Shown here: one piece after another, positions 1,291 through 58,822 of the stretch
Layout of the letters: the number at the start of each line of letters is the position of its first letter
How positions within the stretch are numbered: the stretch's first letter is position 1
Assembly (NCBI GenBank): GCA_051294905.1
Contig: CM119372.1
Coordinates: forward strand, 24,058,001-24,122,000
Source: Botryllus schlosseri
Lineage: Eukaryota
DNA: 64,000 bases
Reading direction: 5' to 3'
Position numbers and translations under genes: made by a program
The notes under the pieces: generated by a model
Databases searched by the model: none
The model's input: only the letters and a program-made list of their open reading frames with translations
Told to the model about the DNA's origin: nothing

Positions 1291-2262
1291 TGGCAGAATT
1301 TTCATTATTAGTATGCTACGTTTTTACGTGCATGTATGACATGCAAAACGTACAAACAGCAGTTGTAATAAACATGTCTGACGCACATGATAACAAATTG
1401 GGGTGCATTATTTTCCTATTATGACTACACAAGCTTCAATAAGGGATGTCTGCAAACTGCTATTGTCTCAGCTGCTCGGCGTAAATGTTCCAGCCGGTAC
1501 AAAGTTTGGTCACAAAGTACCATACATTGCAACCAACCAAGGCCATCTTTATAACCAGTCCGGATCAAATCATACCTGTCATTTTGTTTAGCTTACAACA
1601 TAACAAAGGCACCCCAGCCCCACCGGGACGAAGTTAGCCATCAAATTCTAGCCATCAAAAATAAATATCAGAACTACTGTGTAGAGTACCGCAGGTATCG
1701 GATGTATCACCAGGATCAAGTTTCCGGCCATGCCGCGGGGCAGCCATCGGCCACATACGATGTTTCGACGTAGGTTACGGTGAAATACTCATTAAATTGC
1801 CTTCAAATCAATAAAGCGCATAAATACTCGACTGATTTTATCGCATCACGTCATTTGTGAAACAACTAATAAAGAATATAAGCACGACTAGCACCTCAAC
1901 ACTGTTAACTCAACACAGCTATCTCGCGAATGACTATCTCCATCATGAAATTTTCACAGCTGCAAGGTATCGCTCTGCTGCAAACGAAATTTCGCAAAAT
2001 GTAATTTTAGCACACAAAATCTGGATTGGACAAAACAAATATTGCTCCGACACGCTAAACGCCGTACCTCAAATGTCTCTAAACTATATGATACGCTCAA
2101 CTAAACAGTCACTAAACTTAGAATCGAATCCATCTTCTCCAAACTAGAGACTGTGGCAATGAATGGCGTTCACATATGTATAGTTAGCAGGCAAATCTGA
2201 CACCACACAAATTGTCAACTATCTCCAAGTGGCGCATTCAAATTTATCACGAAAAATATTCG

Positions 2263-4102
2263 ACACCGATTTTCAGCGATATCGAAGTGGCGCAAGGTGT
2301 CCAACGGGCCCGATACGTTCGTCTGCTCAGTGATAAAAATTCAAATTTATTCACGAAAAATATTCGAAAATTTTCAAACTATAACCTGTGTCAAGGAATG
2401 ACTTGCAAATATCTATAGCTTACAGTTACGCCAAGCAGCACACCAATTTTCAGCGATATCCAAGTGGCGCAAGGTGTCCAACGGGCCCGATACGTTCGTC
2501 TGCTCAGTGATAAAAATTCAAATTTATGCACGAAAAATATTCGAAATTTGCCAAACTATACCCTGTGTCAAGGAATGACTTTCAAATATCTATAGCTTAC
2601 AGTTACGCCTAGCAGCACACCGATTTTCAGCGATATCCAAGTGGCGCAAGGTGTCCAACGGACCCGATACGCTCGAATGCACAGTCATAAAAATTCAAAT
2701 TTATTCACGAAAAATATACGAAAATTTTCAAACTATAACCTGTGTCAAGGAATGACTTTCAAATATCTATAGCTTACAGTTACGCCTAGCAGCACACCGA
2801 TTTTCAGCGATATCCAAGTGGCGCAAGGTGTCCAACGGGCCCGATACGTTCGTCTGCTCAGTGATAAAAATTCAAATTTATTCACGAAAAATATTCGAAA
2901 ATTTTCAAACTATAACCTGTGTCAAGGAATGACTTGCAAATATCTATAGCTTACAGTTACGCCAAGCAGCACACCAATTTTCAGCGATATCCAAGTGGCG
3001 CAAGGTGTCCAACGGGCCCGATACGTTCGTCTGCTCAGTGATAAAAATTCAAATTTATGCACGAAAAATATTCGAAATTTGCCAAACTATACCCTGTGTC
3101 AAGGAATGGTTTTCAAATACCTATAGCCTGTAGTTAAACGTAACAGCACACCGATTTTCAGCGATATCCAAGTGGCGCAAGGTGTCTGTCACGGTGGATT
3201 CTCTCAGCATGAGTGGCTCTGTCATGCTCTACTTAATTCTTAACTCGAGAGAAGCGACGACCACGTTTTCGCCCTTTTTAGAGACAGACGTCGTACAGTA
3301 AACAGGGAATTTGTGTCGCATTTCGTGTAGCATTGCATTAACGTAATATCTTCCATTTAGAGTAATTGCCAGCGTATATTTTAACGATACGTTATAGACC
3401 AGTTAGTTAATCCTACTCGCAATACAAGCTACGGAAACCCACTGTGTCTGGACTTTAACGGTCAGTTAGATATCGGTCGTTACTTGCAACAAATATTCCA
3501 GTCCAGTTCTATCGAGAACTGATCCTACGCGACAGTGTCCAACGGGCCCGATACGTTCGTCTGCTCAGTGATAAAAATTCAAATTTATTCACGAAAAATA
3601 TACGAAAATTTTCAAACTATAACCTGTGTCAAGGAATGACTTGCAAATATCTATAGCTTACAGTTACGCCTAGCAGCACACCGATTTTCAGCGATATCCA
3701 AGTGGCGCAAGGTGTCCAACGGACCCGATACGCTCGAATGCACAGTCATAAAAATTCAAATTTATTCACGAAAAATATACGAAAATTTTCAAACTATAAC
3801 CTGTGTCAAGGAATGACTTTCAAATATCTATAGCTTACAGTTACGCCTAGCAGCACACCGATTTTCAGCGATATCCAAGTGGCGCAAGGTGTCCAGCGGA
3901 CCCGATACGCTCGAATGTACAGTCATAAAAATTCAAATTTATTCACGAAAAATATTCGAAAATTTTCAAACTATAACCTGTGTCAAGGAATGACTTTCAA
4001 ATATCTATAGCTTACAGTTACGCCAAGCAGCACACCAATTTTCAGCGATATCCAAGTGGCGCAAGGTGTCCAACGGGCCCGATACGTTCGTCTGCTCAGT
4101 GA
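2263..4102 (+). repeat. 177-bp tandem array, left arm (8 full monomers plus a partial, interrupted by a solo LTR)
   Basis: cagcgatatc recurs at 2274, 2451, 2628, 2805, 2982, 3159, 3689, 3866 and 4043: spacing 177, except 177+353 across the insertion. Confidence 0.97.
3187..3534. mobile_element. Solo LTR (348 bp)
   Basis: Begins TGTCACG, ends CGCGACA (TG...CA with short inverted ends). A 5-bp TSD gtgtc (3182-3186, 3535-3539) splits the monomer motif ggtgtccaacggg. Confidence 0.85.
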
Positions 4103-5319
4103 CATGTTAATCTCAAAGTCACAATGTTGGATGTAATGAACATTTTATCAATCACTTTTCCGTCTTTGCGATGATGGAAGTGTTTGTGATAAATCTGTAG
4201 ACCCAGAATGTTTTACATTAGGGACGTTATATAATACGAAAGAATTCAAGCAATATCCAACCCGCGACATGCAAAACCGGCCACACGCGCTCGCGCAACT
4301 TTTATTTTATCGTACATACAACGGTTAAGTTAGACGGGAAGGTATAACCGGATATAACACATGGTGATCTGTCAGTAATTGGCCTTGTTAGGTTTTGTAA
4401 GATGTCGATATTTCGGATGCAATGGCGATAGCATTTTCCAATACTCAATTTTGACACGGGTAAAACAGATCACTGATTGAGTTGAGTTTCAAATCATTTT
4501 GTGAATTCTTTGACATACTACACCCGAGAAACACTTAAAATTAATGAATATAACATATTACCATGTCTAGGTGAGCTTGAGATAAAATCACCTTGATTCT
4601 GGGGTGGAAAATTAACACAGTGATTGTATATCGTGGTGTAATATTGTCATAAACAGTCAGTTGGGTGTTGAGCGCCGACATCCGCCTTGCGAAACGGTGC
4701 ATCCTCGTATTACATTTGCGATATAACTACCATAGTAAATAATTGGACTCGACAGGATACCCGAGTCATTTGTCCCACAGAATATGAACTCCTTTTACAG
4801 TTAAATAAAAAAGACAGGTCGTTGGAACATAAATATAACCAGGATTTATTTAGGTTGCTGGTTACAGTGATTTATGCTCATGCAACCTTTTTTTTTTAAT
4901 CATATAGGCCTACATACACTGTTTGAGTTTGTCGAGTAAGGTGCGGTGTAAGTGATATTTCAGTAATTGAATCTGTTGGGTTGTAACATGTCGACATGTT
5001 GCGACGCAAAGGTGATACCATATCCAGAAACTCAATTTTGACACAGGAAAAAACCGGATCACTGATCGAGTGGCATGGTTTCAACCCTTGATACTGCTGT
5101 TTGGTGGCCTTGATTAGTGTAAACGATTAGGCTTGTGAAATATTAGCTGATAATCACATCATAAGATTCTGCAACACAGCATCCCGATATATTGCAATAT
5201 ATCACATGGATTCGCTTGAGATAAGATCATCTGGATTTCGGATGTGAAAATTAACACAGTGATTGTATATCCACGCGTAATAATTCTGTCATACAGAGTC
5301 AGTTCGGTGTTGAGCACAA

Positions 5320-5522
5320 TGGTGATTTACACTAGGCCGATATGCTTTATTTTGATTTCGTAGCTGCCGACTTGTAGCACGGGTACTGCTAGGCTTTTTT
5401 AACACACTGCGTACGCCAATCGAGGTGGCGAGGAAGAGCCTAGATAAACATATACAATAAATCGGTAGGAATTCTGGAGTCAACCTCGGTCGGACTCGAA
5501 CTCGCAACTCATTGGAGCCACA
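5320..5522 (-). mobile_element. tRNA-derived SINE fragment (family B)
   Basis: The minus strand reads gcgagttcgagtccgaccgaggttgac (B-box-like). It is homologous to copies at 36345-36580 and 37150-37370. Confidence 0.65.
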
Positions 5523-5629
5523 TAATGTTAACCAAGTCACAAGTCAATCAAAATGTATTAGTTTTAATCAGAGTCATCTTCAATTCACCATGAAGTCAAG
5601 TGCTTGCATGCCTACGTCAAGCAATCACG

Positions 5630-7617
5630 AGCGCCACTTGGATATCGCTGAAAATTGGTGTAGTGTTGGGCGTAACTGTAGTCCAGAGGTCTCAAACTTA
5701 CGTGTGCTCGCGGGCCATTTCCTAGATTTTGATGACGCCGCGGGCCGCAGCATCAATAATAGCGACATTCAAGATTTTTCATAGCGCCTGTCCATTTTCA
5801 ACCCGTTGGACAGCTTGCGCCACTTGGATATCGCTGAAAATCGGTGTGCTGTTACGTTTAACTACAGGCTATAGGTATTTGAAAACCATTCCTTGACACA
5901 GGTTATAGTTTGAAAATTTTCGAATATTTTTCGTGAATAAATTTGAATTTTTATGACTGTGCATTCGAGCGTATCGGGTCCGTTGGACACCTTGCGCCAC
6001 TTGGATATCGCTGAAAATTGGTGTGCTGCTTGGCGTAACTGTAAGCTATAGATATTTGAAAGTCATTCCTTGACACAGGTTATAGTTTGAAAATTTTCGA
6101 ATATTTTTCGTGAATAAATTTGAATTTTTATGACTGTACATTCGAGCGTATCGGGTCCGCTGGACACCTTGCGCCACTTGGATATCGCTGAAAATCGGTG
6201 TGCTGCTAGGCGTAACTGTAAGCTATAGATATTTGAAAGTCATTCCTTGACACAGGTTATAGTTTGAAAATTTTCGTATATTTTTCGTGAATAAATTTGA
6301 ATTTTTATCACTGAGCAGACGAACGTATCGGGCCCGTTGGACACCTTGCGCCACTTGGATATCGCTGAAAATCGGTGTGCTGTTACGTTTAACTACAGGC
6401 TATAGGTATTTGAAAACCATTCCTTGACACAGGGTATAGTTTGGCAAATTTCGAATATTTTTCGTGCATAAATTTGAATTTTTATCACTGAGCAGACGAA
6501 CGTATCGGGCCCGTTGGACACCTTGCGCCACTTGGATATCGCTGAAAATTGGTGTGCTGCTTGGCGTAACTGTAAGCTATAGATATTTGCAAGTCATTCC
6601 TTGACACAGGTTATAGTTTGAAAATTTTCGAATATTTTTCGTGAATAAATTTGAATTTTTATGACTGTGCATTCGAGCGTATCGGGTCCGTTGGACACCT
6701 TGCGCCACTTGGATATCGCTGAAAATCGGTGTGCTGCTAGGCGTAACTGTAAGCTATAGATATTTGAAAGTCATTCCTTGACACAGGTTATAGTTTGAAA
6801 ATTTTCGTATATTTTTCGTGAATAAATTTGAATTTTTATCACTGAGCAGACGAACGTATCGGGCCCGTTGGACACCTTGCGCCACTTGGATATCGCTGAA
6901 AATCGGTGTGCTGTTACGTTTAACTACAGGCTATAGGTATTTGAAAACCATTCCTTGACACAGGGTATAGTTTGGCAAATTTCGAATATTTTTCGTGCAT
7001 AAATTTGAATTTTTATCACTGAGCAGACGAACGTATCGGGCCCGTTGGACACCTTGCGCCACTTGGATATCGCTGAAAATTGGTGTGCTGCTTGGCGTAA
7101 CTGTAAGCTATAGATATTTGCAAGTCATTCCTTGACACAGGTTATAGTTTGAAAATTTTCGAATATTTTTCGTGAATAAATTTGAATTTTTATCACTGAG
7201 CAGACGAACGTATCGGGCCCGTTGGACACCTTGCGCCACTTGGATATCGCTGAAAATCGGTGTGCTGCTAGGCGTAACTGTAAGCTATAGATATTTGAAA
7301 GTCATTCCTTGACACAGGGTATAGTTTGGCAAATTTCGAATATTTTTCGTGCATAAATTTGAATTTTTATCACTGAGCAGACGAACGTATCGGGCCCGTT
7401 GGACACCTTGCGCCACTTGGATATCGCTGAAAATTGGTGTGCTGCTTGGCGTAACTGTAAGCTATAGATATTTGCAAGTCATTCCTTGACACAGGTTATA
7501 GTTTGAAAATTTTCGAATATTTTTCGTGAATAAATTTGAATTTTTATCACTGAGCAGACGAACGTATCGGGCCCGTTGGACACCTTGCGCCACTTCGATA
7601 TCGCTGAAAATCGGTGT
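5630..7617 (-). repeat. 177-bp tandem array, right arm (10 full monomers plus partials)
   Basis: atcgctgaaaa recurs at 5830, 6007, 6184, 6361, 6538, 6715, 6892, 7069, 7246, 7423 and 7600, plus a partial unit at ~5630-5683. It is the reverse complement of the left array. Confidence 0.97.
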
Positions 7618-8476
7618 CGAATATTTTTCGTGATAAATTTGAATGCGCCACTTGGAGATAGTTGACAATTTGTGTGGTGTCAGATTTGCCTGCAAACTAT
7701 ACATATGTGAACGCCATTCATTGCCACAGTCTCTAGTTTGGAGAAGATGGATTCGATTCTAAGTTTAGTGACTGTTTAGTTGAGCGTATCATATAGTTTA
7801 GAGACATTTGAGGTACGGCGTTTAGCGTGTCGGAGCAATATTTGTTTTGTCCAATCCAGATTTTGTGTGCTAAAATTACATTTTGCGAAATTTCGTTTGC
7901 AGCAGAGCGATACCTTGCAGCTGTGAAAATTTCATGATGGAGATAGTCATTCGCGAGATAGCTGTGTTGAGTTAACAGTGTTGAGGTGCTAGTCGTGCTT
8001 ATATTCTTTATTAGTTGTTTCAAAAATGACGTGATGCGATAAAATCAGTCGAGTATTTATGCGCTTTATTGATTTGAAGGCAATTTAATGAGTATTTCAC
8101 CGTAACCTACGTCGAAACATCGTATGTGGCCGATGGCTGCCCCGCGGCATGGCCGGAAACTTGATCCTGGTGATACATCCGATACTTGCGGTACTCTGCA
8201 CAGTAGTTCTGATATTTATTTTTGATGGCTAGAATTTGATGGCTAACTTCGTCCCGGTCCCAGCCCCCACTCCCCATGCGCAGCACCGCACCTGTCGTGT
8301 ATTGACTATTTTTTTTATACTACACCACTATCATTGGCACACATGGGTCGAAGTTGTGAGATAACTTGTTTAGCAAAAGGCGAAGAGGAACTATGCAGTG
8401 CTAACTGGGTCTGTGGCGTCCCACAGGCGAAAAGCCGTAACCGACCACCTCACACCTCAACTGAACCAAACGCATT

Positions 8477-8511
8477 CGCTAACTGAAATATTCCTTTTTT
8501 CTTCTCAACAG
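8477..8511 (+). promoter_or_regulatory. Strong splice acceptor upstream of the CHID1 ATG (5'UTR intron or SL trans-splice site)
   Basis: Branch-like cgctaac, then pyrimidine tract ttccttttttcttctcaa and CAG ending at 8511, 92 nt before ATG 8604. Confidence 0.5.
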
Positions 8512-8603
8512 TTCCGGCGTTCGGGGAATACCCCTTCCCACGTCTGCATTTTGCGGACTCGCTCTTCGCTCTCGTTCAATGCTGCACCGTTTGTACGTTC
8601 GGT

Positions 8604-11600
8604 ATGCTGAGGAACGTACCATTCCTTGTGATTTTTTACCTATTCCTTATCTGTAGTTGCGAGGCTACGTTATCGAAAAAGAAGAAAACTAAGGATAAGA
8701 AAAAGAAATCAAAGAAGGTGACTCGATATTTATTCATTATATATGAACTAATAACTTTAATCATGAACCGTATATGCCTGTGAAATTATTTATAAGCATG
8801 GATGTAAATAACTAATACAACAGGCAAAAGATTCAGTGCATTAGTCATTACACTCGTCCGCCATAGTCACTGAATGCAAGCAGATCATGTGTGCATCCAT
8901 ATAGCATTCACCGGGAAACTGTGTATTACGATTGCTCTTGCTATAGGCTACTTTTGATCAGGTATAGTGGCAAATTTGAAGATAATTAGGCGTAACGTTG
9001 GCAGTATACTATGTGGCTGCTGAACTACGTCTATTTTGTCTGTATATGTAATTATGTATATCGTTGTGTACAATTAGCGTTATTCATTGCATTACAGGAA
9101 GATGAAGTGAAGGTTAGCCTTCCAGAACAAACCGTCTTCAAACGCGGCTTGGTGAAAGAAAACATCACTTACACTGAAATTACTGATAATTACATGCTGT
9201 ATTCGAAATTCCACAAAAATGAACGGCGATTCGAAGGTGAAGTTCTGGCATATGTAACTCCGGTAAGAAAATATATGTAAAAAGTCTATAATAGCTACGG
9301 TAGGCTAGTAAAGTAGCCTTTGTAGGCTATGTTACTGGAGTAGAGCAATCACAGAGAAAACTGACTGGTGTAAAAAGTATGCCTGTAGACTTATTAGGAG
9401 AACTTCTTAGCACTAATGTAATAGGCTATGTAGATGTTGACTGTTGGGTAGATTAATGATGCAACTCTATTGATGAAGTCATTTCTATTTGACCAAATTT
9501 GCAATGAAGGAACAATGGCATTTTTAATGTGAGCCACGTTAATACAATTACAGTGGCTGTCACATTTACTCATAGAGTGGGTCACTACAGATTTTAGGGC
9601 AAGTTTTTGTTGCAGTCAAATCCGTGGAAAGTTGCATTTATTTTTCACAAAATTCCCACTAGTAAGTTGCATTTATGGACAAGTTCCTTGAAATTATTAG
9701 GGTATGAAATACTCGAATCAATCGCTATCCAAGGCACTGTAGTAAAACTTGGTGTTGGTGACTTCAACAAATTCAATAGCCTGAAAAAATTGACCCAGTG
9801 AAAATATAATTTTCGGCGGTATAGCCTGAATGTACGTCAAATCAGGAAGGACCTCAAATTTAAACGACAGCGAAATAATCAAGCTATCTATTCACGTATA
9901 GTGCCAAATATTTCCAGTAAAAAGTTGGTTGCATGAAAAATCGGGAAAAACTGGAAAAAATTTGCATGAAAAATCAAAAAAAGTTGCAAAAAGTTTCATG
10001 AAAAATCGAAAAAGTTACAAAAAGTTGCATGAAAAAAATGGAGAAAAGTTGCTAAAGGTTGCAATATAAGAATCCTCCAAACAGCTTAAAACACTATGCT
10101 ACATAACTTTTGAGTATTTAGGAAGCTGCAGGAAGCTCTAAAAAAGTTGCAAATGTTGCAAAACTTGCCCTACTGATTATATATAGGCCTCAAAGCTGCT
10201 TGTGTCACCTAGTTCTTGAAGGCAATTATTCCTGCTTTATGACAAAAGTAATCCTATCAAGTTCATGTAATGGTAAGCAAGTGATTCTAGCAATTGAATA
10301 GTATCTTCACATTGAAATGAACCCGAATATTTTCGGCTGACACTCGTCAGGGGTAATCGTCAGCAACTAGTAGAGAATTGGAAAGAACATTGTACGACGT
10401 ACGTTATACAATAGTTATACATTATACAATGTTGTTTCCAATTCTCTACTAATTGCTGACGATTTCCCCTGTCAAGTGTCAGCCGAAAATATGCGGGTTC
10501 ATTACAATATGAATAGACTATTGAATTGTATAGGCAGGGTTGCCATACCGTCCTTATTTTGAAGGGCCACGTCTTAGAAAACTCAAATGTCCTTATTTCT
10601 AAGAAATGTCCTTATTTTCGACTTGCGTCCTTAATTTGTCTTATTTTCAACCACTGCAGAACTTTGATCGTTTTTCTGTGGTATCCGTGTTGCATAATAT
10701 TCTAAAATTATGCTTTTGTGTCGAGATTTCATGACATCATAAATGAAAGGAACTCTTGTGACGTACACACCATAAGATTTGACTACCAAGTGGTGAGATA
10801 GCTAGGGCAGTGGGTGGTATTTTAGCAGTAAACAGCAGTACCAGGTTCCTGCTATTTGATCTACAGCAGAATAAGCTCAAGCTGTGGGGAAGGCAGCATA
10901 TATTGCGTAGTGAAAAAAGACGCAGTGCAGCCGACACATTGGTTAAAAAGTAGTAAAGCTATAAATCATTGATAAATTTTTCAAAATGATATTGCACTTG
11001 CGCACTATCTGCAATTGTGACATTAACCATAGGAAAGACCGCTATTTCAACTCACATTGATACCCCAAAACACAAGAAGTGTGTCATAATGATTAATTTG
11101 AGCCAGTCGATGAATAATGTTTCCACAAGTCGATCAGCGCCAACGAACGACCATCGACTACAAGGCAGCTGCTGCAGAGGGTATGCCTGGACATTCCATA
11201 TTGTCAAATAGGCCTACCAGCAATCATTCCGCACCAACGATTGCACATCGCAATTGCTCAAAGCAATATTCCAACATCGCAAATAAGTTTTCGTCGGTCA
11301 GGACCAAGACTACAGCATTGTTACTGGAGTTCTTGCTCCATATGCTCAAAAAAGATTTTGTCTAAACTTATTGTACGGCATTTTTCCATCTTGATTGACG
11401 CCTCTAATCACAACGAGGTGAAGAAGTTTGGTTAATCAGCCTAGTGGGGAAAGACCAAGGTTTTTTTTGGGAGGGGGGGTGCTGACGAAGTGCTGTATCG
11501 GCCCTGAGTAAAGGTAAATCTAGACCTGAGCTGTCGTGAGATCCATGAAGCACTTTCTACTAACACGGACTTGCTGGAGCAGATTTTTTCTGGCGAAAAG

Positions 11601-14600
11601 TATGGAATGTGATGTGACACGCATCGTATAAATACAAAGTATGTATTAAAACGCTTATTCATGCTAATCTAATTTTTCGACTGTCCTTACTTTTGGGTCC
11701 ATGTCGATGACAACCCTATGTATAGGCCTACCGGTATGGAAGTTCTTTAGCTCCGGGAAGCTCTTCAAATAGTATGCCTGCATCACCAGTTGGAGATGTG
11801 AAGATGATTTGAATATACTTGTTCCTTTTGTTTACTTGCAGTTCTCCATAAATGACATCTAGATTGATTTCTTTTCTTCTAGTGGAATAGTCACGGTTAC
11901 ACTGTTGCGAAGAGGTGGGGTAAATTTACTATGGTGTCCCCGGTGTGGTTTCAAATCAAGAGGAAACAACGTGGAATGTACAATGTAGAAGGCACTCATG
12001 ATATCGATAAAGGTATGGAAAGTTTAATGGTCGTACATTCATTATTTGCTTAATGTGCCAGGATACGACTATACTATTGTGGGCACTAAGCAGGTATAGG
12101 CCTACGTAGTAGGGCCAGTCGAAACCCCATTCTTTAGAAATGCTGATCATATCTCCAATGTTTCTTAGCTCATTTGCAATTCATGTTAGCAGTGTAGCGA
12201 GAATCGACAGTGTACCCGAAATCCTGCTGATATTGTGTGATTGAGTGATTGGCAGCTACTGCTGTGTAGAAATATGATATCTGATGCGCCAGGCCGGAAC
12301 TAATGCGTCTGCTGTGATAGTGATGTCTGATGTGCTATTGATTCAAGACTGGGGACTTGAATGGAATTAATTGAAATATACATAACTGACTGTGAACAGA
12401 ATCCGAGTGGCTAAATTGCTAATACAAAAACACACTGTAATCTGTTCAGGAGTGACACCTATTTCAGAGAGAGAGCTGATGCGATCTACTTATTATAGGC
12501 ATTTGCACATGTACTTAACCCTCATAAATTGATGCTAACTTGGCACATTTGAAAACAATTCTAACCCCTCCCTTTTTTCCGGCTGCCTAGTGCCTACTCG
12601 CCTGGCGCTAGGGCTTATCATTGAAATTTAGGAAATCTCCAGTGCAGTTTTCATTTCAGTGATAATTTTATGTTAAGGTTGGATGAAAGACTTGAAGAGA
12701 AAGGAAAAACCTCCAAAAATTGGTACGAACCATACTGTCCCATTGATTTTTGGTTGAACATGTTGTAAATTTCGGAACGTTCTTAGTTCCACGAGTTCTG
12801 TTCGATGGCTGGTCGGAAATGGAGTACAAATCGCTTTTCTCGAGCGAAGACGAAATTGAAACTATGACAAACGAGATTGTTCAAGTCCTGAAGGAAAACA
12901 ATATGGACGGGGCTGTGATTGAAATATGGAGCCAGATTGGACACAAGTATCCCGAGTGAGAATTTCCTAGAATACAATCGACTTAGATATTGTACTCAAG
13001 TATCGGCAATGTGTGTTCATCACTGATGTTACTTGAGTATAATAAGTAGAAGCAATAGAGAACTTGCTATTTTTTTATGACTACTGCCGGTACCAGTAAT
13101 ATTTTTTGTCCTAGCCCACCATAGTTTCAACGTTAAAACACACATCTGAAACCGATGTAGGATAGGTCACATACTCACACAGCTGCGAAAAGATGCGACT
13201 CAATAGAAAGTTTATGTTGTGGTGATGCCTTGGTTAGATATCTTGGCAATCTGGCATTGAATCGATCCATACCGAGGCCCAGTAACTACCGTATGTTCTG
13301 TTTGACAAAAATTTGACATGTGTATACCGTCCGTATTGTCTTTGAAGCCAGTAAAGTAATTAGTGTTAGGCAATTTCTAATACCGGTACCTGTAATTCCG
13401 ATTAGAGTTTTGATCTTTTGAGTTGAGTATCCGCGTAGCCACTCATTAAAATGTCACAAAAGTATTTATGATCATAAAAGTTCAAAAACATATCTTTTTG
13501 CAGCCACAAGTAAAATAATGCCAGTTACACGCCATCACTTTGTGACAATGTCGGCCACTAACTCAGCATTTCCTCGAACATGCGTATTGCATAACCTCTA
13601 CGCAGCATGTGTTGGAGGCTAACGTACAAACAATCGTGGTTATTAGGATTACATGGTGGAAGAGGGTAGCACAGCTATATTTTCCGCTGATATAATAACT
13701 CTTTCTACGAAGTGCATGTGTTTTCATTACTCGAAAAAATTCACTCCCACAAATTGACTCAAATCGTGATGCCCAGCCCAAGTACTCGCTCCCAACTACT
13801 ACTCGTAAAAATTTGCCTTTCACTGCTCGACTTGATTCGTTACAATTGATACTCGGTTAGCATTCATTGTGTCCAAGCCCAGAACTAATCTAAAAATAAT
13901 TACCAATATGTTGGTCTATTGGAGAAAGTGGTAGTTACTGATCGTCTGTGGCGCTGTGTTGAGGATGCTAATTTCCAGATACATGCATATTGCATGTGTT
14001 ACGATATGATAAGAGTTGATAGAAAACTGATGCCTTCTCGTATTCACCAAAGTATGCATGTGGATTGTGGAATGAGGCTGTGATTGTAATATCGGTCATA
14101 GTTTAAATCTTGTTGGTAGAAGTCTTTTGCGATTTTCATTTGATATTTTTGCTTGCAGAGAGGTAGTGCACGTTGTCACCCACATGGCCGAGATCTTCCA
14201 TGAGAACGATCTCATGATCATATTGGTTGTGCCACCCGGATTAGACAGACAGTGAGTACTAAAATATGCGCAACGTCTGCGCGGTCACTGTTTCAGTGCT
14301 CAAATTTTTCAGAAAAAATGTAGTGACGACCTTCACAGCTGAGCGATTTGAACAGCTCGTCCCACACGTGGATTATTTCAGTTTGATGACGTATGATTTT
14401 TCGACAAACGGAGGTCACATTGGGCCATCGTCACCAGTGCCATGGATCATCTTGTGCGTTAAGTTCCTTGACCCAGAAGAAAAGCATCGGTCTAAAATAT
14501 TGACCGGCTTAAATTTTTACGGCCACATGTTTTCGTCACTTGGAGCGTCACCCATAACGGGGAAAGAGTAAGTACCATACTTCTATGACAACATATTAGA

Positions 14601-15979: not shown

Positions 15980-18900
15980 CTAGGTGTTATAGTAGTCGGT
16001 GGGGAGAGTGTCTGTCAAAAGTGAAGCATTATTTTATGTGGATGCTCTGTTAGTCGACCAGAGACGTGCTGAAATTAATGGACGGAATTGCAAATAATTA
16101 ACAATCTTCAAGTGGCGTTTCAATATAGCCTAATCTTGGTCATGGTAGTCATGGAGGATGAATCGAAATGTCATTTCATGGTAGGGATCAAGCTATCCTT
16201 TCAGTTTCATTAAGATAGCTGCCACATGTTTTCTTCCAGTTTGCTTTAGTTCAGGCTTGGATCATAATTTACAGCAAGAAATTCTGGAACATATGCTTTG
16301 GCAGTCTGCTGGCCATGTGCCTTGAGACTCGGGGGGGGGGCATAAGATTCACTTGACGGCAGAGATTCCTGGAAGCATCGGTGAAAGTGCTACATGGCTG
16401 GGGTGCCAGAGAGCATATGATGTATCTTTTCAGTTCGTCATTTCCACACCATGGATTCAACATACATACCATTGCATCTGTACATCAAATTGGACCATAT
16501 CACTTCTTCTTGTGAGAAACAGAATACTCCAAGCCGTCCCCCTTTCATTGTGTAATCAATGATTCGCCCCGAGTCGGAAATCTGGCAAACGAAATGGTAA
16601 ATGATGTATAGAAACAACAAGCGACAAAAATGGAGGTGGCATGTCATTCAAGGCGAGATCGATAGGTCAGTCGTGGTCCGGTAATCTTGAGGATGGACTG
16701 TATTTATTTAGTAGTAATTGCTTGTATTTCGACTTGAATATGGACATTAGGGCTGTTCAAAAATAACATTTTGTTCTGGATTCCAGTCATTAAATTGTCA
16801 GGTTACCCTAAAAAACGCTGCGCACCAAATTTGGTTAAATTCTAACAAGTATAGGGCTCCGCAGATCCAGTTGAAATTTTTAATTTAAATGGGAAAATGA
16901 AAAATTCTAAATTTTCTTTCAACCCCATGGAATTGTTGAGCTGTCTTTGGAGACGATCCCAAACAAATTTGACTCAATTCCAACTAGTAGAAGCGGAGTT
17001 ATTGGAGTTTTCCGTTGATAATCCTCGGATTATCCACCAATCAAATCATGCTCGTCGACTGTCGGATGGCCGGCGGGATACTGTTCAACCCACACCTCAC
17101 GTTCGGCATATTTGATAGAGCGATGATCTTTTCGGTCGATCATAAGATATTTGAATGACGTGGACGCGCGTGTGTTGTAGGCTACTTGTGCAGAACTTCC
17201 AAAAGGTTTGATAGTGTCATTTTTAATATTGGTGAGGCGAGTCGTGGCTTCAAGGTTATAACAAGCCAATAAACGAATCAGCCCATCCGATGTTACCTAG
17301 GGAGCAATAGGCTACCAGTTTGCTCTGCAAATTATTGTAATAATGTCAGGACTGCGTATGACAATTGAAAAGCTAAGTATTACTTTACAGGCCCCATTTT
17401 CGAAACGTCTATTATGATAGCAGGAGTTATAATCCTAAAGCTCCCGGTTATTTAAATCGGTAGTCGGAATCATGAGAGAGAGAGATAGAGAGTCTTTATT
17501 TTCATTCTACCAAAATACATAAAACAACAGACGGCAATGAAAGTGGTACAGAAAATATGCATGCACACTAAATTGCACAGTATTCGGTATTACATAGGAA
17601 TGATCGATATGACCTTGAGGGTCAACTAGTCTGATCACACCCGCATCAAACAGGCACACTTGACTCTGTGTAACGAAATGGTAGCAAAAATTGGCATAAA
17701 CGATATCGGTGATATGAAGGAGGCTGAAATACTCCCAATATACAAGCATATTACAAAATCTTACCAGTATGTTTCGTCGGTACATTTGTAATCTGATGTA
17801 GCCTACGTTTGGCCTGTGGATGAGCTTCCACCGATAGGGAGTATTATCACGCCAGCCAACGTTCTTCGGGTCCTTCCATAGAAGCTTCACCTGATTCGGC
17901 GTGTTGCCGCTTTGCCAAAGGGCGTTTCGAAGGTATTCTCCGGGACCGCTGACAGATTTCACTACCTGGAACCAGCAACCAAATATCATTAAGCTTCATA
18001 CTTGGATATACAGTTTTATACAGTTTTTACCCCATTATCGTGTAACACTCTAACTCAGTGGTTCCCAACGTGGGCGATATCGCCCCCCAGGGGGCGATTT
18101 GGCGGTCTAGGGGGGCGAAAATAACGAAGGGGGCGATGGTGCGTTAAAACGGCTATATTGGAGTCGGGACCGTAACTACCGCACCCCAAACCCCCCAATT
18201 GGGGTGGGGGGCCCAAAATCGAAGGAAGTCCAAAATTATTTCGTGCATTAACATGAATGATAGAGTAATTTTTTAGAAATTCATGCGACTTTATCAAAAA
18301 CTTTTCGCGTTGCGCCCGATTTAATATTTTCATGTATCGTATCTTGATGTTGGGGTCCCCGTCACCCAACAAAAATACGCATGATTTATGGAAATGGGAG
18401 ACTTCGGCGTCGGCCATTACTGCGCCACGACGCACCAAGACAAATGAAGATAGAGGCCATATGTAACATGCGACTCCGAAAAGTGTGCCAGAACGACCGA
18501 AAACTTCGATATATATACATATATGTTTAATTACCTCAATGGCTGGCGTCGAATGTTCCTGTCCTGGCGACCTTAACCCTACACATGCCATCCCGCAAGG
18601 AAAAAATTATTTGCCAGTTAAGAAATACCAATATGAAATCATGTGCGTCTTTTAGTTTGGTACGTTTTGACGATTTCCATATCTTCTGACATAGCAGATC
18701 TAGGAGGTCACGAAATAGCATCATGTAAAGAAGTCAATATAACAACGATTCCGCCCGAAGATGTTTAATTATTATTTAGGGGTCCTACCTTTTCCAACAT
18801 ACCACATCGACCAAATTGACCGATTCAAACATGAATTATATAAATTTGTCGCGCTTCGAGCGTTTAGGCGAAGTACGGTGACTCACCAAACAGTACATGA

Positions 18901-21900
18901 AATAGGGTATAGCTGATATATAGCGACAAAAATCCCACTGGCTGAGGGGAGTCTGGGGTTTGGTTTATCACCCTATGGGGCCAAAGACCAACGTTTTTTT
19001 TCGGGGGGGGGGGGCTGAGAAGTGCTGTTTTTCGGTTCCCAATATTTGGGGGGCGATGATCGGTGTGGCGCATCAAAAGGGGGCGATGAGTCGAAAAAGG
19101 TTGGGAACCACTGCTCTAACTTGTCCTTGATGATCTCGAGGTGGTCTGTATCGTAGTAGGCCTATATACTCTTACTTTTCGGGAATGATTAGGTATTTTC
19201 ACACTACTTGCACTATACTAAAGCGACTATGTTCATATACTACTTCCACTTATCCTTTTAGGCAAAAACTTCTTTTTATGCTACAAATAGGATTTTGTAA
19301 CGTAGAATGCAGTTTGTGATACGTTTGCATCTCTTGAAATTGCCATATAACAACGGGACGAAAGCTCCTGTGTCACGGTAAACTAAATATTTTTTCGAAA
19401 GTTGTGCCTAGTTATGGTGTTATTAGTCGTTTTACGTTGGACGCGAAGATACGCCATTAAATTTCAATTCTAGCTACTTCCGAATGGGATTAACTGTTCA
19501 TCCTAGGACCAAATTTACTTCATGAAGCTACTTGGAGTAATTTCCGGATCTTTATTTTTCCACTGCCACTTTTGGCATGAATTGTGGCCAGTCTACTCTC
19601 CACCTCACCCAACATGGATGGACTTTAACCTGGTTGGTGAAACAATTCAGCCCATAAAAATGATGCAAATTGATTCAAAGACAATTTCATATCTCAATGA
19701 AAATGATGAAGTAGCCTAACCAACGAACTAGGCTACGTGGCATTTGAAAACTAACTAAAATAAGAATCACTTTAGTGGTATAAGTAAGCAGAGCTACCAG
19801 TATTCGACCTATTGTTTTTACACAGTGATCAAATAAATATATACATCGGTCAAATTCCTCGGGGACGTGAGACGGCATATCATACTTTCAGCTGGATCCC
19901 AGGTTCCGCTATTGCTCGGAAGGGCTCTGTTTGCCAATAGGTCTGCTTCGACTGTTTCCACGTCACTGCGTAAAAGCTCTTGCTGTCCTGTCAGTAGTCG
20001 TGTATTTTAAGAATGAAATATATTTGTCCGAAACCAATTACCGACCTGATAACCGAATATAAATCCAGCGTAATCGTCATCTGTCTTTGTGTTGACGTAA
20101 AACGTTCCGTAAAAGTCAAGTCCATTGAAGGCCGTGTAGCCTATAGCGAGCCCAGGGTCGCTATTTAGTGTCTGCACAATCTCTCTGCCCTGTTGATGAG
20201 AAGTTGTGGTCAAGACAAATCTTGAACTGACATAATTGACGTTTTTAGGAATTGGGAAATCGATTTGCGGATTACGACTGAACGCGGAATTCTGAACGAT
20301 TTCAAATATTCGTGTTAGGCGCGACGACTGAGTTTTCTGTTTACGGCTGTGCAAAAATGATATCTTATTAAGACAGTTCTGTAATAAATCAGTTGGGTAT
20401 ATTCCAACATCGCCCAGAAGTCAATGGTGTTTGATTTCTCACCGGAAAACACAGTCAATGTCATACGGGGATGCATTTTGGTGGATCTGACTCGAGTATT
20501 ATAATATCACCCGAAAAGATTTGATATATAGATGCAAGTTCGTAGGTATAATATATTTTGATATATTTAAATACTTTTGAGCAGCACCGTAACTGCCGCA
20601 CCCCAAACCCCCCAAATGGGGGGGCCCGAGCTCAAAGGGGGCCCAAAATTATTTCGTGAATTAGCATAAATAATAAAGTATTTTTTGAAAATTTATGCCA
20701 ATTTTTCAAAATTTTTTCGCGCTGCGCGCGAATTCAAGAAGCCATTTATCTTTATTATTGGGTATTGGGCCATTACCGCGCTACGACGCACCAAGACCTA
20801 CAATCAAGTTTTAGGCAATATAACATGCGACTCCAAGAAGTGTGCCAGAACGATCGGCAGCGAGAAAACCTTGGCCGAAAAGGTCTATGCCCTTTAGGGT
20901 TGTTCAGAATTGATCGACTTTCAAAATGTCGTTGTTTTCAGTCCGATTCCCATGCCTTATACCATAAAAACATATCCTAGGTACTTTTTTTCGTAATTCA
21001 TCCCTTGCATCCGTGTGCACATTGAGCTGGAAGAATATCGGCTAAAAATAGGGGATTCCCCTAAAATTTGAAGGTCGCCATTCGGACTAGGCTAGTGAAA
21101 CGTCATATATAAGCTGATTTTATGTAGCTATTGCGGTTGGAGTGCTACATAACCTCACTATAGAAAGTATTGTCAGTTCAGGACACCACTTTCATGTCCC
21201 ACACTGCCTTAGAACTCCTCAAAACTGCCTAAGACTGATAGTCATTTTGTTGGATCACCTTTCCTACACTCCTCAACACTACCCGAGATTGTTCATCAAT
21301 TGCCGGGATCACCACGTGCAAGAATACAACTGTAAATGTATCATTCACTCACAGCCACATTATAAACATCACATTGTTCAAAGGAAACGAAACAAAAAGA
21401 CAGAAACAGATCAACTTGGCAAATGCTACTTAAATCAGGTACGGATGAAATGGTTGCATTAGAGAAATCGGCATATCTGTTCCCGTTATCTTCCACGGCT
21501 TGTAAGATGCTCGCTCGCTGTTCTTTGTCATCTGTTTTGAAAGCATCAAAGTCGGTATTCAATTTCACCAAACGCTCTGCTGCGCCGTTAACTATTTCAA
21601 CGCTACTCACAAATTCTTGAGCAGTCACGAAAAGCGAATCAGTATGCCATTCCGAAACTGGAAGACTAAACCAATCATGTTCGACATGTATAGCATTGAA
21701 TAGAAACCATGATTCCGGTTCAATTAAAGCAACCATACTCATTGACTCGGAGATAGAGTCAGAGATTAGACTCAGAGGTGTAGCCTACCTCTGCGAAATT
21801 GTTCTAAGGATTGGCATTTGCAGCAATTTAGCAGCCATTGCTTCCTTCACTTTGTCAGTAATCTTTGGTTTAGCCGAGAACATTGTTGATACCACCGTTT

Positions 21901-24900
21901 CCTCGGTGAGATGCCAATGATGTCCTCGCATCTTTCTATATGCCACATCAGCAACAGTGAAATCGCACATTGAAAAGTCTGTCATGCCATGCAGGAATTT
22001 GAGATCAATATACTGTGCGTCACATGCATTACCAGTTTTCAACCAAGCTGGGACATAAAACAGGGCAACTTTCTAATGAACTCTTCAGAATAGCTCATTT
22101 GCTCTCTCCACATGAACATTTTTGACAGTACAGCACTTGACTCATCCATCCAGTGCTATTAGTAGCACCAGGCTTGCGAAAAAGATTATCAAGATATTGG
22201 GCAGCTACAATCGCCAAGGTGCCTGTTGCACATTCTCTGTAGTCATTTATTATCAAGACTTCTTTCTGCTTTCCATTATATGGCTTCATCAGTGGAATTA
22301 TTTCTTGCTTAGCTTCATCAGCTTTGATCGCCAACCAGCTGCATTCATCAAACTGAAGTGTTTTAGATCTTCTTAATTGATCAATATCTTTCCACTTCTT
22401 GGAAGGTAATAAAATCTGTGTTTTCAGGGCCTGTGGTCGCTGATCCAAACCCACTTCACTTCCAGACCTCGGAACCACGGATGACTAGTTCATAAATATG
22501 ATGGCGACAAGCAGAAGTAGAAAACTTTCCTGTTTATCAATTCTTCAAGTAACAGAACCGCACCTTTATTTTTTCCATTGTTTGAGGGTGTTGTGTCAAA
22601 CACAAGAGCTCTGACATTATTTGTTAAATTATAAAGTTCCAGCAGTTCAAATGACAGATCAGCCTGTGCTTTTCTTGTAGCACTCTCCAGAGTTCGATTG
22701 CCAAGAAGTTTGCCTTTCTCAAATGCGTTGGAATACGCAGACTATGCCAGCACTGCCAAGGCCTCAAATTTCCCTCCGAAACGACTTCTAGTGAGCTTTG
22801 CATCCCAGTGCAATGCAATGTGCCAAGTTGATATGTTTATTTGCCTTTTTGTTTCGTTTCCTTTCAACAATGTGATGTATATAATGTGGCTGTGAGTGAA
22901 TCATACATTTACAGTTGTATTCGTGCACGTGGTGATTCCGGCAATTGATGAACAATCTCGGGTAGGGTTGAGGAGTGTAGGATAGGTGATCCAACAAAAT
23001 GACTATCAGTCTTAGGCAGTTTTGAGGAGTTCTAAGGCAGAGTGGGACATGAAAATGGTGTCCTAAACTGACGATACTTTCTATAGTGAGGTTATGTAGC
23101 ACTCCAACCGCAATAGCTACATAAAATCAGCTTATATATGACGTTTTACTAGCCTAGTCCGAATGGCAACCTTCAAATTTTAGGGGAATCCCCTATTTTT
23201 TAGCCGGTATTCTTCCAGCTCAATGTGCACACGGATGCAAGGGATGAATTACGAAAAAAAGTACTTAGGATATGTTTTTATGGTATAAGGCATGGGAATC
23301 GGACTGAAAACCACGACATTTTGAAAGTCGATCAATTCTGAACAACCCTAATGCCCTTATGCTGACCGAAGACTGCGTTCTATATATAAAATAAACATAG
23401 GTTTAATTGTACATAGGCGCCTAAATGACTGACGCCGAATGTTCCTGTCTTTGCAATCTGAACCTCACAAGACAAATACCATCCCGCTGGGAAAAAATTT
23501 ATGCCAGTGAAGAAATACCAATTTGAAATCGTGTGCGTCTCTTAGTTTAGAAGCCTACGTTTGGGCGATTCTATATGTTTTGATATAGCAGACTGGAAGT
23601 TACGAAATAACATCATGTAACGAAGTCATATCAACGGGTCCGCCCGCCAGAAGATGTTTAATTATTATTTGCGGGCCATCCCGTTTTCAAGACACTTCAC
23701 TCAGCTCTACCGGTAAATCTAATTACGTGAGTAGGGAGGAAAATAAATTGATAACATAATATATATGCAATCGCCGATCTGATTGACCGATTTTATCATA
23801 AATTAACGAAAATTTTCGCGCTTCGCGCTGGCTCACAATACAGTACAGATGATTTCGTGACAAACGCGAACAACGTGATGGGGGGGTCGTTTTATCACCC
23901 TATGGGAGCCCAAGACCCACGTTTTTGGGGGCCTGACGAGGTGCTGTTTCGTTCCTGCCAACGGGTATACGCTTGAAGATGTTTAATTATTAATGGAGTG
24001 GTCCTACCTTTTCAAACACACCTCACTCAGCTCTACCAGCAAATGTGATTACGTGAGCAGAGAGAAGATAAAAATTGATAACAATATAGGCAATTACCGA
24101 TCATACGGACCGATTCAATCATGAATTGTAGAAAATTTTCCGCGCTTCGCGCGCTTAGGCGACAAAATCTGATTCACTCAACAAACTCCTAATGAATATG
24201 ATAAATAGCGTTAAACTGTGTATCGCCGGAGGGGGGTCTGGGGGGGCGAAGCCCCCCAGAAGTTAGGTCTATAACCCTATGGGGGGCCCAAGACCAAAGT
24301 TTTGGGGGGGGGGCTGACGAAGTGCTGTTACGGCCCTGCTTTTGAGCCATAGCAAGTCCTGAATCTGGAAAACATTAGGCTACCCTTATACATTTATCTA
24401 TCTCAGCATAAGTAGGCCTACGGAATCTTCTCTGGACTGCATGCAGGAAACTTCAACTCCCATAAAGGATCCGTGTTACATAAGACCATGGTTGTAACCA
24501 AGTCAATTTGACTTTTATAGTATTGACTGGAGTCAAGTCGAGTGATTTCCAATTCACCACCGAGTCATGTCCTAGTCCAGGTCAGGGAGTAACGGGTTGA
24601 GTCCACGTCAGAGGGTTTACTCTTCAGTATCGAGTTCAACGCACTTCTCAAAAACTCTAGGGTGATATCAAAGGCCTTGGGTTCCTTACTAATTTTCTCA
24701 TTCTAAACATTTTTATTCAAATGGATAAAAGACTGTTTCCGGGCCTATTTTACAATTATTATCGGCCCTCAAAAAGAGTATTGAATAAATCATGTGGAAT
24801 GTGTCGACTGTCGAGTCATAAGAGACTTGATCGAGTCGTACGCAGCGACTCGAGGAGGCCCTGTCAATACACAAATTATAGATAGGAAACGTATAGGAAA

Positions 24901-53418: not shown

Positions 53419-53798
53419 GTTACGAGATATAAGAAAATTGGGACTGAAAATACGATCCTAAAGAAATTTCATAGAATACACGAGCAATGACATGAGCAAT
53501 ATGAGCGAGCATGCAAATAATATCAGCAACTGAAGATTGTAACATATGTCAGACAAGACAACTCCTACACCCCAAGCTCCATGGTGACCTAGTCACACCA
53601 GTAACGCGGCAAAAATGAATGTAACGGAGTCCCACTGAATAACAATTACCCTTGCTGGCGAAGGCAATAACTATAAAATAATAGGCTCTCAGATTATGAT
53701 TTTGAGTAGTTGGGTCATATGACCGGATGCAGACGAGAGTCATGTGACTGTTTGTAACCGAGACTACTTGGAGAGTTGTTATGGTCTATCTAGCGCCA

Positions 53799-57237: not shown

Positions 57238-58822
57238 ATATTATGCTACTACCCGTGACGGCGTGACCTATGTCAAAAGATATGGAAATCGCCAAAACTA
57301 AAAGGTACACACGCTTTCAAATTGGTATTGCTTTACTGGCAAATAATTTTTCCCTGCGGGATGGCATTTGTCCTGTGGGGCTCACATCGCCAGGACAGGA
57401 ACATTCGGCGCCAGCCATTTAGCCAATTGAACATATATGTATATTGTATATATATCGAAGGTATGGGTCACGACAAGGGCATTCCTTCTCGGCTAAGGTC
57501 TTCTCGCTGCTGATCGTTCTGGCACACTGCTCGGAGTTGCATGTTACATAGCCTATAACTTCATATGCCTTGGTGCGTCGTGGCGCAGTAATAGCCGAAG
57601 TCTCCATTTCTATAAATTCTACGTATTTTGTGGGGAAATGGTACCCAATAATTAGATAATTGGCAATATTAAATCGCGCAACAAGCGCGAAATTTGTTTG
57701 AAAAAGTAGCATAAATTTTAAAAGATACTTTAATTTATGTTAATTCACGAAATAAATCTGGGCTCTTCGAGCTCGCCCCCCCCCCCAATTGAGGGGTTTG
57801 GGGTGCGGCAGTTACGGTCCTGTTCCCCACTACCCAGCACTTTTGTCATCAAAGAGCAGCTATTTGCTGGTTTGACTACACAAGACACACAACCACACCA
57901 GTACGCAAGACAATCGCCTATAACTGCAACATAAAACGTATTGTGAACCGATACCATCCAGTAACGCTGAAAGTTTCGCGAAAGCGTTATTTCACGTCAA
58001 ACTAGTCGTGCTGGATGCGTTTGTGACGCCATGATTGATGGCCATCCAGATTTAAAATGAGGTTTTGTGGACAACACAGCAATATAATTTTCGTTACATA
58101 CATTCCAGAGCAGTTAACTGGTAACGGTAATTGCGCATGTGTCTCCGTGAATATGTACACTGTCCTATGTATAATTTTGAACAAATGCGTCTATTCCCCA
58201 CCAGAAACCATTGAATTCCCCACCAGTGGGGAATTCCCCCCCGTTTGGGAACCACCGTCTTAAGTGATACTCTATTTTTGATGTGTGGAAATGTTGCGGG
58301 TCAGATAAACTTCATGGTGTTGACGAACTTATGCGTATATGGTGGACATCAACCACCATCACTAACGAGTCCGGCTATGCTATCGATTAGCGATCTCCCG
58401 TGAATACATATTCATATGAACTTTTATTATAACGAATCAGGTGATTTCAATGACACCATTTCGCATACGAATGAATAACCCTATACGAGGGAGATCGCGT
58501 GCCGCTTTCCAATCGATTCTCGCTAATTGGAGGCGCCGATAATACGAATAGCAAATGAGGGAAGAAATATTAGAGACACGATCGGCATTTCATACAGACG
58601 TTTAATAAACGAGGTTAATAATGTAAAGAATTTGTTTTCCAAGTGAGTCTATTCCCAGCCAGAAGCCCCTAAATTCCCTACCGGTTGGAAACCACTGCAT
58701 TAGAATATATCTGCAAGTATAATTTTACATCACTACAATCATTTTGCGACATATGATCAAATGTCTATCTTACCAACCAATCTGTGGGTCACACTCATTA
58801 GCCAATACATCAGATTTTATGA

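Follow-up and report, generated by a model that had tools for sequence, protein, structure and literature searches.

A gene-less foldback DNA transposon with 177-bp tandem units in its inverted arms in Botryllus schlosseri, likely of Mutator/Rehavkus type

Anatomy of the element and its surroundings

The window analysed here, a 64,000-nt stretch of Botryllus schlosseri DNA, contains a ∼6.6-kb element with exactly inverted ends (first base 1622, last base 8258), whose arms pair without gaps over 1565 nt at 97% identity. The element is bounded by a 9-bp target site duplication (TSD), CCCAGCCCC, at positions 1613..1621 and 8259..8267; these are the only two occurrences of this 9-mer in the window, and identical pairs of random window 9-mers came up in 24 of 2,000,000 draws. 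Both arms begin with a 641-bp outer domain of the terminal inverted repeat (TIR), located at 1622..2262 on the plus strand and at 7618..8258 on the minus strand, and the two domains differ at four of 641 positions (1682, 1694, 1857 and 2186). The original prediction, which had reported exact inverted termini, a perfect TSD and four mismatches counted by eye in outer domains of ∼640 bp, is borne out on each of these points, and the end at 8258 is also marked independently by a contig of a public run (X7, see below). The left outer domain harbors an 11-bp subterminal direct repeat (1635-1645 and 1649-1659), a putative pair of transposase sites. This repeat is absent from the internal monomers within 2 mismatches (27 matches in the window vs. 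25 expected, none of them in the arrays), and thus lends no support to secondary binding sites there.

Inside the outer domains lie tandem arrays of a 177-bp unit, which face a loop of ∼1.5 kb as predicted; TRF places arrays of period 177 at 2263-3186 (5.2 copies), 3535-4090 (3.1 copies) and 5802-7617 (10.3 copies). The left array (plus strand) consists of an outer part (2263..3186) with a 39-bp lead-in followed by monomers L1-L5, and an inner part (3535..4102) with L6-L8 followed by 32 bp, while the right array (5802..7617, minus strand) holds 10 full monomers, in which a periodicity of 3-mers (531 bp) is partly developed (R4 = R7, R5 = R8). A remnant of the innermost right-arm monomer, 92% identical to the array, is found at 5631..5680 (minus strand). 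The 18 full monomers, eight on the left arm and 10 on the right, represent nine distinct sequences with a mean identity of 93.8%; four of these nine occur letter for letter on both arms, in a different order. In addition, the outer domain itself contains a degenerate monomer (2090..2236, plus strand; mirrored at 7644-7790) that is ∼74% identical to the array unit (nhmmer E-values of 2.8e-16 and 3.3e-17; z = 11.4 against 200 shuffles; 73.7% over 99 nt by BLAST) and is likely an ancestor or older copy of it.

The description of the unit as ‘nucleosome-sized’ found no backing in its composition: AA/TT/TA periodicity of the monomer at 10-11 bp, with its strongest peak at 11.06 bp, was not significant (p ∼0.077 with 5,000 shuffles), and 27 of 310 other pieces of the window scored as high. 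Single-strand DNA folding of the monomer is likewise ordinary (z = 0.79).

Two insertions interrupt the arrays. One, likely a solo LTR, is a nested insertion of 348 bp (3187..3534) that divides the left array; it is flanked by a 5-bp duplication (3182-3186 = 3535-3539) and has TG...CA ends, short imperfect inverted ends and an AGTAAA motif. In the right arm, ∼110 bp of the innermost monomer are replaced by a fragment (5684..5789, plus strand) that is 88-90% identical to both termini of an inverted-repeat element at 55498-60495, and that is presumably a hAT-like end. Neither a solo-LTR-like insert nor a hAT-like end that has decayed would be expected in a very young copy, unless the donor already carried them. 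The 1528-bp loop (4103..5630) is non-coding. Within it, 4364-4673 and 4952-5315 resemble each other in blocks of 77-83%, as the product of an old internal duplication; 5308-5442 is a fragment of a different inverted-repeat element (76% identical to 36418-36550), and 51 bp recur at 37291-37341 (90%). The duplication had resembled the monomer by eye; nhmmer gave no match in the loop proper, and z-scores against shuffles were 0.7 and 1.4.

As originally noted, no transposase is visible: none of 53 stop-to-stop frames of at least 28 aa from the loop, the left outer domain and the insert has a Pfam match at E ≤ 0.01, and for 12 frames at E ≤ 0.1 no transposase appeared, the matches within the element being sub-threshold (E 0.04-0.07). 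Rfam returned no match in 1600-5900 at E ≤ 1; elsewhere in the window, its gathering level yielded two tRNA-like matches only. In RNA run X24 (∼6% of it read), depth on the element is 0 to ∼5 per strand, with many differences, a coverage too thin to speak for or against expression or dsRNA. For a CHID1-like gene, the first exon with visible expression (8512..8717, plus strand; acceptor AG at 8510-8511, ATG at 8604) lies 253 bp downstream of the element and was recognised by RNA depth and a splice loose end. Further exons of this gene lie at 9098-9262 and from 11883, the latter matching PDB 3bxw (E 3.9e-13). A search with a thrombospondin exon gave at least 376 matches; among the 120 of them listed, those bearing a name showed 52-62% identity (vertebrate COMP/TSP; amphioxus, 56%).

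Other copies, a probable empty allele and signs of arm homogenisation

Public runs were compared at the right end of the element, in 4 of 24 runs, and no record spans the whole element; the depth of a contig does not translate into copy number, and rare variants drop out of contigs. A contig of run X7 departs exactly after 8258 into a foreign flank, representing a second insertion with the same terminal base, and outer-domain contigs of run X5 reach a depth of ∼2,430-2,560, roughly 24 times that of the flank. Copies sharing the terminus, as the original prediction anticipated, are thus present. The X5 monomer depth roughly equals that of ∼10 units per arm and gives no sign that the family has seeded free satellite DNA, another suggestion made at the outset.

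In X5, a 574-nt contig aligns only from 8259, preceded by 372 non-element letters, at a depth of 106 (vs. 103 for the neighbouring flank contig), and probably represents an empty allele. The original prediction had proposed to look for an empty-site allele; in this contig the right flank occurs without the element, the 372 preceding letters being identified as non-element and not as the left flank. Run X1 contains an element-flank junction contig (8231-8353, depth 7.2), whose 28 element letters fall below the 31-letter bridging rule, together with a second allele (depth 10.6) carrying the letter of the X5 contig at 8323. Two such alleles are what one expects from a heterozygous insertion; X1 itself is possibly the source sample. 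The insertion appears to be polymorphic and to be absent from this site in another sampled animal.

Could the palindrome have arisen in assembly, from a chimeric or fold-back read that mirrored a satellite-bearing repeat? No record spans the element and contigs offer no check on the number of array units, which leaves some room for this, but the order of the monomers differs between the arms, which argues against a mirrored misassembly, as do their differing number and the 348-bp insert with its own duplication in one arm. Four outer-domain differences, different flanks, a 9-bp direct duplication, recurrence of the terminus at another site (X7) and a flank without the element in another sample (X5) point the same way, making an artefact very improbable.

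Four positions of the outer domain (7852, 7876, 7996 and 8061) carry the same letter on both arms of this copy, while the entire X5 depth shows the other letter, as does X7 at the three positions covered; 31-49% of the X1 depth lacks that other letter. Since these letters are common to both arms and mostly missing in X5 and X7, they suggest that the arms were homogenised before a recent spread of this sub-lineage. Signs of arm homogenisation, which was part of the original proposal, are found in these letters, the monomer variants shared between arms and the 4/641 mismatches.

The family is also structurally mixed, as indicated by an X5 terminus depth (∼11,300) that is 4-5 times that of the inner part of the outer domain, and by an X5 variant whose outer domain lacks 227 bp (depth 933). 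Such a mixture would agree with a composite, in which two inverted single-arm elements had picked up host DNA as the loop and then moved a single time as a unit; the loop would in that case be unique to this copy and there would be no 6.6-kb family. The ragged inner ends of both arms, and a loop pieced together from old repeats that recur elsewhere in the window, also agree with this. We nevertheless consider this improbable, given that a single TSD encloses both arms, that the outer domains differ so little and that the sub-lineage letters are common to the arms; a composite origin would, moreover, alter the source of the loop and not the class of the element.

Class and proposed mobilisation

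The element has features of the foldback class: long modular TIRs with internal tandem repeats (the 641-bp domain plus 8 and 10 monomers), a TSD at the exact termini and dispersed copies. Foldback middle domains are variable and usually non-coding; in this copy the middle is non-coding. Its TSD falls within the 8-11 bp of Mutator-like elements (MULEs), as judged from one copy, and the 9-bp TSD combined with long TIRs containing subterminal tandem repeats also matches Rehavkus (TSD lengths from PMC6446971). The anatomy, the lack of coding capacity in this copy and the presence of other copies with the same terminus are observed directly, and they support the original proposal of a multi-copy, non-autonomous, recently inserted foldback element of the FB/Mutator kind. 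We therefore consider it probable that this is a gene-less foldback DNA transposon belonging to a multi-copy family, likely recent and likely cut and pasted by a Mutator/Rehavkus-type transposase encoded elsewhere in the genome. Because this copy has no transposase, its architecture and the length of a single TSD are the grounds for assigning it to a superfamily.

The foldback shape is convergent, and an origin outside Mutator (from a P/Galileo-like element, from hAT or from a palindrome with Polinton ends) might be suspected, as there is no transposase here to classify by and the right arm contains a hAT-like end. This hAT-like piece is single-ended, sits within the arm and has diverged more than the arms have. 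The terminus at 8258 is fixed independently by X7. TSDs measure 8 bp in hAT and P elements and 6 bp in Polintons, and hAT TIRs are short; a 9-bp TSD thus speaks against membership in each of these groups and, together with kb-long TIRs, against hAT in particular. Galileo, too, combines long TIRs with tandem units of ∼210 bp, and TIR length is regarded by its authors as an unreliable guide to classification, but its TSD is 7 bp (PMC3573991). Long modular TIRs are, in addition, described from unrelated superfamilies (PMC3573991, PMC3169594). On balance, a non-Mutator origin seems unlikely.

Under the favored Mutator/Rehavkus assignment, a helper transposase acting in trans would bind the terminal ∼40 bp, where the 11-bp repeats form a pair, and would cut the target with a 9-bp stagger that gives rise to the TSD. 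The 177-bp unit may have arisen when the inner end of the outer domain, in which the degenerate unit survives, was duplicated, and the arrays could then have lengthened and shortened through unequal exchange or slippage. At times one arm may have served as the template for the other, through gene conversion or repair, so that the two became alike again; this would explain the identical monomer variants and sub-lineage letters on both arms; regeneration of TIR symmetry is known for maize Mu (PMC10401008). The loop would represent a filler of old host repeats, with the solo-LTR-like piece and the hAT-like end as passengers. Mutator insertions are biased to the 5′ regions of genes, and the proposed landing of this apparently polymorphic copy just upstream of a CHID1-like exon would be consistent with that bias.

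A bolder version, which we regard as possible though doubtful, is that a Rehavkus-type sub-lineage is bursting now in one lineage, that its arms were equalised just before, that a higher-order repeat of 3 units is emerging in its arrays, and that the family is both a living source and a carrier of satellite DNA. Should a helper with the same ends be found, the family would provide an active animal model for the upkeep of TIR-repeat symmetry and for satellite birth. A heterozygous copy 253 bp from a CHID1-like exon would, if confirmed, offer a natural test of the effect of a 5-kb inverted repeat on a neighbouring gene.

Relation to known foldback elements

Foldback TIRs with variable short tandem units, 8-9-bp TSDs and a MULE transposase characterize Drosophila FB/NOF. 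Accounts of Tm1 of Meloidogyne (PMC3169594) and Muta1 of Aedes aegypti (PMC5225508) describe the same TIR organization and TSD lengths, with non-autonomous copies that have heterogeneous middles and a MULE transposase in the autonomous copy; in contrast to the present element, their units are 12-15 bp, their TIRs ∼150 bp or a few hundred bp, and their helper is known. Galileo, a Drosophila element of the P superfamily, resembles ours in its tandem units that differ in number between arms and in its two-TIR non-autonomous copies, and differs in its P-type transposase and shorter TSD (PMC3573991).

Rehavkus, a Repbase group placed beside or within MULE, is listed from arthropods and annelids in PMC6446971. 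The Tribolium elements Rehavkus-1_TC, Rehavkus-3_TC and Rehavkus-like are described as carrying 2-12, 6-8 and up to 50 satellite-type monomers per terminus (bioRxiv 10.1101/2024.12.02.626372). The likeness to these is one of architecture and consists in the 9-bp TSD and in long inverted termini that contain satellite-type monomers in varying number; this copy lacks the PHD-finger DDE transposase by which the group is defined.

A search of mainly open-access literature found no such foldback family for ascidians or Ciona intestinalis, and a prior name, for instance in Repbase/Dfam, is possible; the main text of a recent ascidian genome paper (PMC12448946) does not contain the words ‘MULE’, ‘transposon’ or ‘satellite’.

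A close architectural parallel is Tetris of Drosophila virilis (PMC4079207), which has TIRs of up to 1,735 bp containing ∼220-bp units (vs. 177 bp here) that are kin to an outer flanking domain of up to 866 bp (vs. 641 bp here), a non-coding variable middle, an 8-10-bp TSD and no known autonomous copy, and is tentatively assigned to Mutator. These units and those of Galileo show that, contrary to the original prediction, the internal units of the present element are not unusually long. Tetris comes from a different phylum and is compared here by architecture; its arms are shorter (up to 1.7 kb vs. ∼2.5 kb with 8-10 units here), its TIRs include an inner domain absent from this copy, and its units have formed free satellite arrays, of which there is no sign here. 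The present element shows evidence of polymorphic insertion. As the architecture is already known from Tetris and from Rehavkus of Tribolium, the gain is an example and not a mechanism, and a useful one in that apparent polymorphism, homogenisation recorded in both arms, a degenerate parent unit still in place and an adjacent expressed gene occur together in a single copy.

Architecture and coding capacity of the foldback element

The inverted arms of the 6.6-kb element start at 1622 and end at 8258, are 97% identical over an ungapped 1565-nt pairing, and differ at four positions over their outermost 641 bp (the outer domains). The 9-mer flanking them occurs in the window only at 1613-1621 and 8259-8267; two random window 9-mers were identical in 24 of 2,000,000 draws. 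Period-177 arrays (2263-3186, 3535-4090, 5802-7617) lie inward of the outer domains, around a loop (4103-5630). The longest stop-free frame in the element is 107 codons, none of 53 frames (≥28 aa; loop, left outer domain and insert) matched Pfam at E≤0.01, and Rfam gave no match at E≤1 within 1600-5900. The original prediction, made from sequence alone, was therefore borne out in its exact inverted termini, perfect 9-bp TSD, four mismatches in ~640-bp outer domains, 177-bp arrays pointing toward a ~1.5-kb loop, and lack of a visible transposase.

The 18 full monomers (8 left, L1-L8; 10 right, R1-R10) have a mean identity of 93.8% and comprise nine distinct sequences, four of which are letter-identical across arms (L1=L4=R1=R3, L2=R2, L5=R4=R7, L8=R9). 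Monomer order and number are unequal between arms, and the right array has a partial three-unit period (R4=R7, R5=R8). Differences between monomers are modular (head, middle, tail), as unequal exchange would give. Misassembly is unlikely, because the arms differ in monomer order, only one of them carries a nested insert and the 9-bp duplication is direct, features that a mirrored chimeric read would not produce. That insert (3187-3534, 348 bp) splits the left array; it has TG...CA termini, short inverted ends that pair imperfectly and a duplication of 5 bp, hallmarks of a probable solo LTR. The innermost right monomer is reduced to 5631-5680, beside which ~106 bp, presumably a hAT-like end, match both ends of an inverted-repeat element at 55498-60495 (88-90%). 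The latter is an older 5-kb foldback with arms of about 1.4 kb (83-86%) and hAT-like ends, whose end sequence lies inside the element at 5684-5789 and also near 36801-37036.

Since the outer domain contains a degenerate monomer (2090-2236; mirror copy 7644-7790, E about 1e-16), the TIR itself is the likely source of the array. In the loop, an old duplication (77-83% blocks) is patched together with pieces common to repeats at 36418-36550 and 37291-37341; derivation of the duplication from a decayed monomer was rejected (z 0.7 and 1.4).

Other copies, a probable empty allele and proposed arm homogenisation

Part of the window is contained in 20 of 24 public runs, all of one organism, and four (X1, X5, X7 and the RNA run X24) were compared over 7441-9900, which covers one monomer, the right outer domain and the right flank. 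An X7 contig matches the terminus exactly to 8258 and continues into 147 letters unlike either flank of the element; it is a second insertion, a further copy of the kind the original prediction had proposed to seek. Because it departs exactly after 8258, the element end, and hence the 9-bp TSD, is independently fixed. In X5, from a different sample and study, a 574-nt contig (depth 106, vs 103 for the neighbouring flank contig) opens with 372 other letters, known only as non-element, and matches the window from the first TSD base (8259) onward. It probably represents the empty-site allele that had also been proposed. X1, possibly the source sample, has both a junction contig (8231-8353, depth 7.2), with 28 element letters where the bridging rule asks for 31, and a second allele, at depth 10.6, with the same letter at 8323 as the X5 contig, which suggests that the insertion is heterozygous there. 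The element is real and young, and probably polymorphic.

Contig depth is a rough guide and gives no copy number. In X5, outer-domain depth is about 2,430-2,560 (24x flank), reaching 11,299 at 8186, near the element end, and a variant without 227 bp of the outer domain has depth 933. Depth at monomer positions (20,655-66,608) is 8-27x that of the outer domain, near the 8-10 units per arm seen in the element, so that a large free satellite (at least 88% identity) is not required, though one may exist.

At 7852, 7876, 7996 and 8061 both arms carry the same letter. All X5 depth has another letter at these four positions (absence of the element's letters is not proven, because contigs drop rare variants), as does X7 at the three covered, while 31-49% of X1 depth lacks the X5-type letter. 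The family letter at 8186 is missing from the right arm only; the left-arm letter accounts for 4,775 of 4,811 X1 depth. These patterns are most simply read as a sub-lineage in which arm-to-arm copying fixed the four changes on both arms and which spread within the lineage to which sample S1 belongs, the element gaining a few changes afterwards. Regeneration of TIR symmetry has been described for maize Mu (PMC10401008).

Genomic setting

In RNA run X24 one exon begins at about 8512 and another occupies 9098-9262; splicing continues to an exon at 11883 that matches chitinase domain-containing protein 1 (PDB 3bxw, E 3.9e-13). Downstream of the element, the acceptor (8510-8511) follows after 253 bp and the ATG after 345 bp. 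The element may occupy the promoter, an intron of the 5' UTR, or an outron; RNA depth over the element itself is too low to judge. Mutator elements characteristically favour the 5' regions of genes (PMC10401008). The CHID1-like gene (8512-12014, plus strand) opens with a signal-peptide-like sequence and then a run rich in lysine, and its RNA depth starts at the AG acceptor, with none in the preceding 250 bp. This acceptor could be a trans-splice site, trans-splicing being a feature of ascidians, or could close a 5'-UTR intron. Farther along are minus-strand exons of a COMP/thrombospondin-3/4-like gene (17507-42852; named thrombospondin matches 52-62% identical, among the matches listed) and a tetraspanin exon (53080-53457).

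A second young TIR element (20895-23350) has 534-bp arms at 96%, ends TAGGG...CCCTA, an 8-bp duplication read from the flanks, and a broken minus-strand transposase-like frame whose motifs we take to be hATm; two frames scanned gave no Pfam match. A very high-copy repeat with a sharp start (9595-9900; depth thousands of times flank in X1 and X5) is followed by a short tandem repeat (9928-10063). Also present are a minus-strand remnant at 980-1200, similar to 17105-17174, whose motif resembles that of a LINE ORF at its 3' end; degenerate TTAGGG-like repeats (155-430); two tRNA-like Rfam matches, possibly SINE heads (32669-32740, 40275-40347); and further MITE-like inverted-repeat elements with arms of 79-84% (10291-10528, 27842-28491, 36450-37257, 39332-40924).

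Proposed mechanism and relation to known foldback transposons

A Mutator/Rehavkus-type transposase may act in trans on the terminal region, where a paired 11-bp repeat (1635-1659) does not recur in the arrays; the arrays would change through unequal exchange, the arms would be re-equalised through conversion or repair, and the loop and inserts would be passengers. Structure, lack of coding capacity and other copies are the observed part of this scheme. The literature covered, which took in few subscription journals and neither supplementary files nor the Repbase and Dfam collections, showed no description of the family.

The overall plan is that reported for Tetris, in which ~220-bp units are akin to the flanking domain, the middle is non-coding and the TSD is 8-10 bp; Tetris, with no known helper, is tentatively assigned to Mutator (PMC4079207). 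Internal units predicted to be unusually long are thus of ordinary length for the class, and nucleosome phasing of the monomer, implied by calling them nucleosome-sized, was not supported. Tribolium Rehavkus carries 2-50 satellite monomers in its inverted termini (bioRxiv 10.1101/2024.12.02.626372); Rehavkus shares the 9-bp TSD, but has a PHD-bearing transposase (PMC6446971) that the element lacks. Foldback TIRs have been linked to MULE transposases in Tm1 (PMC3169594) and Muta1 (PMC5225508), whereas Galileo, with a 7-bp rather than 9-bp TSD, shows the foldback shape to be convergent (PMC3573991). Membership in Mutator or Rehavkus, both defined by their transposase, is likely. The element is a new member of an already known kind of transposon, and by analogy would work like Tetris or a non-autonomous Rehavkus.
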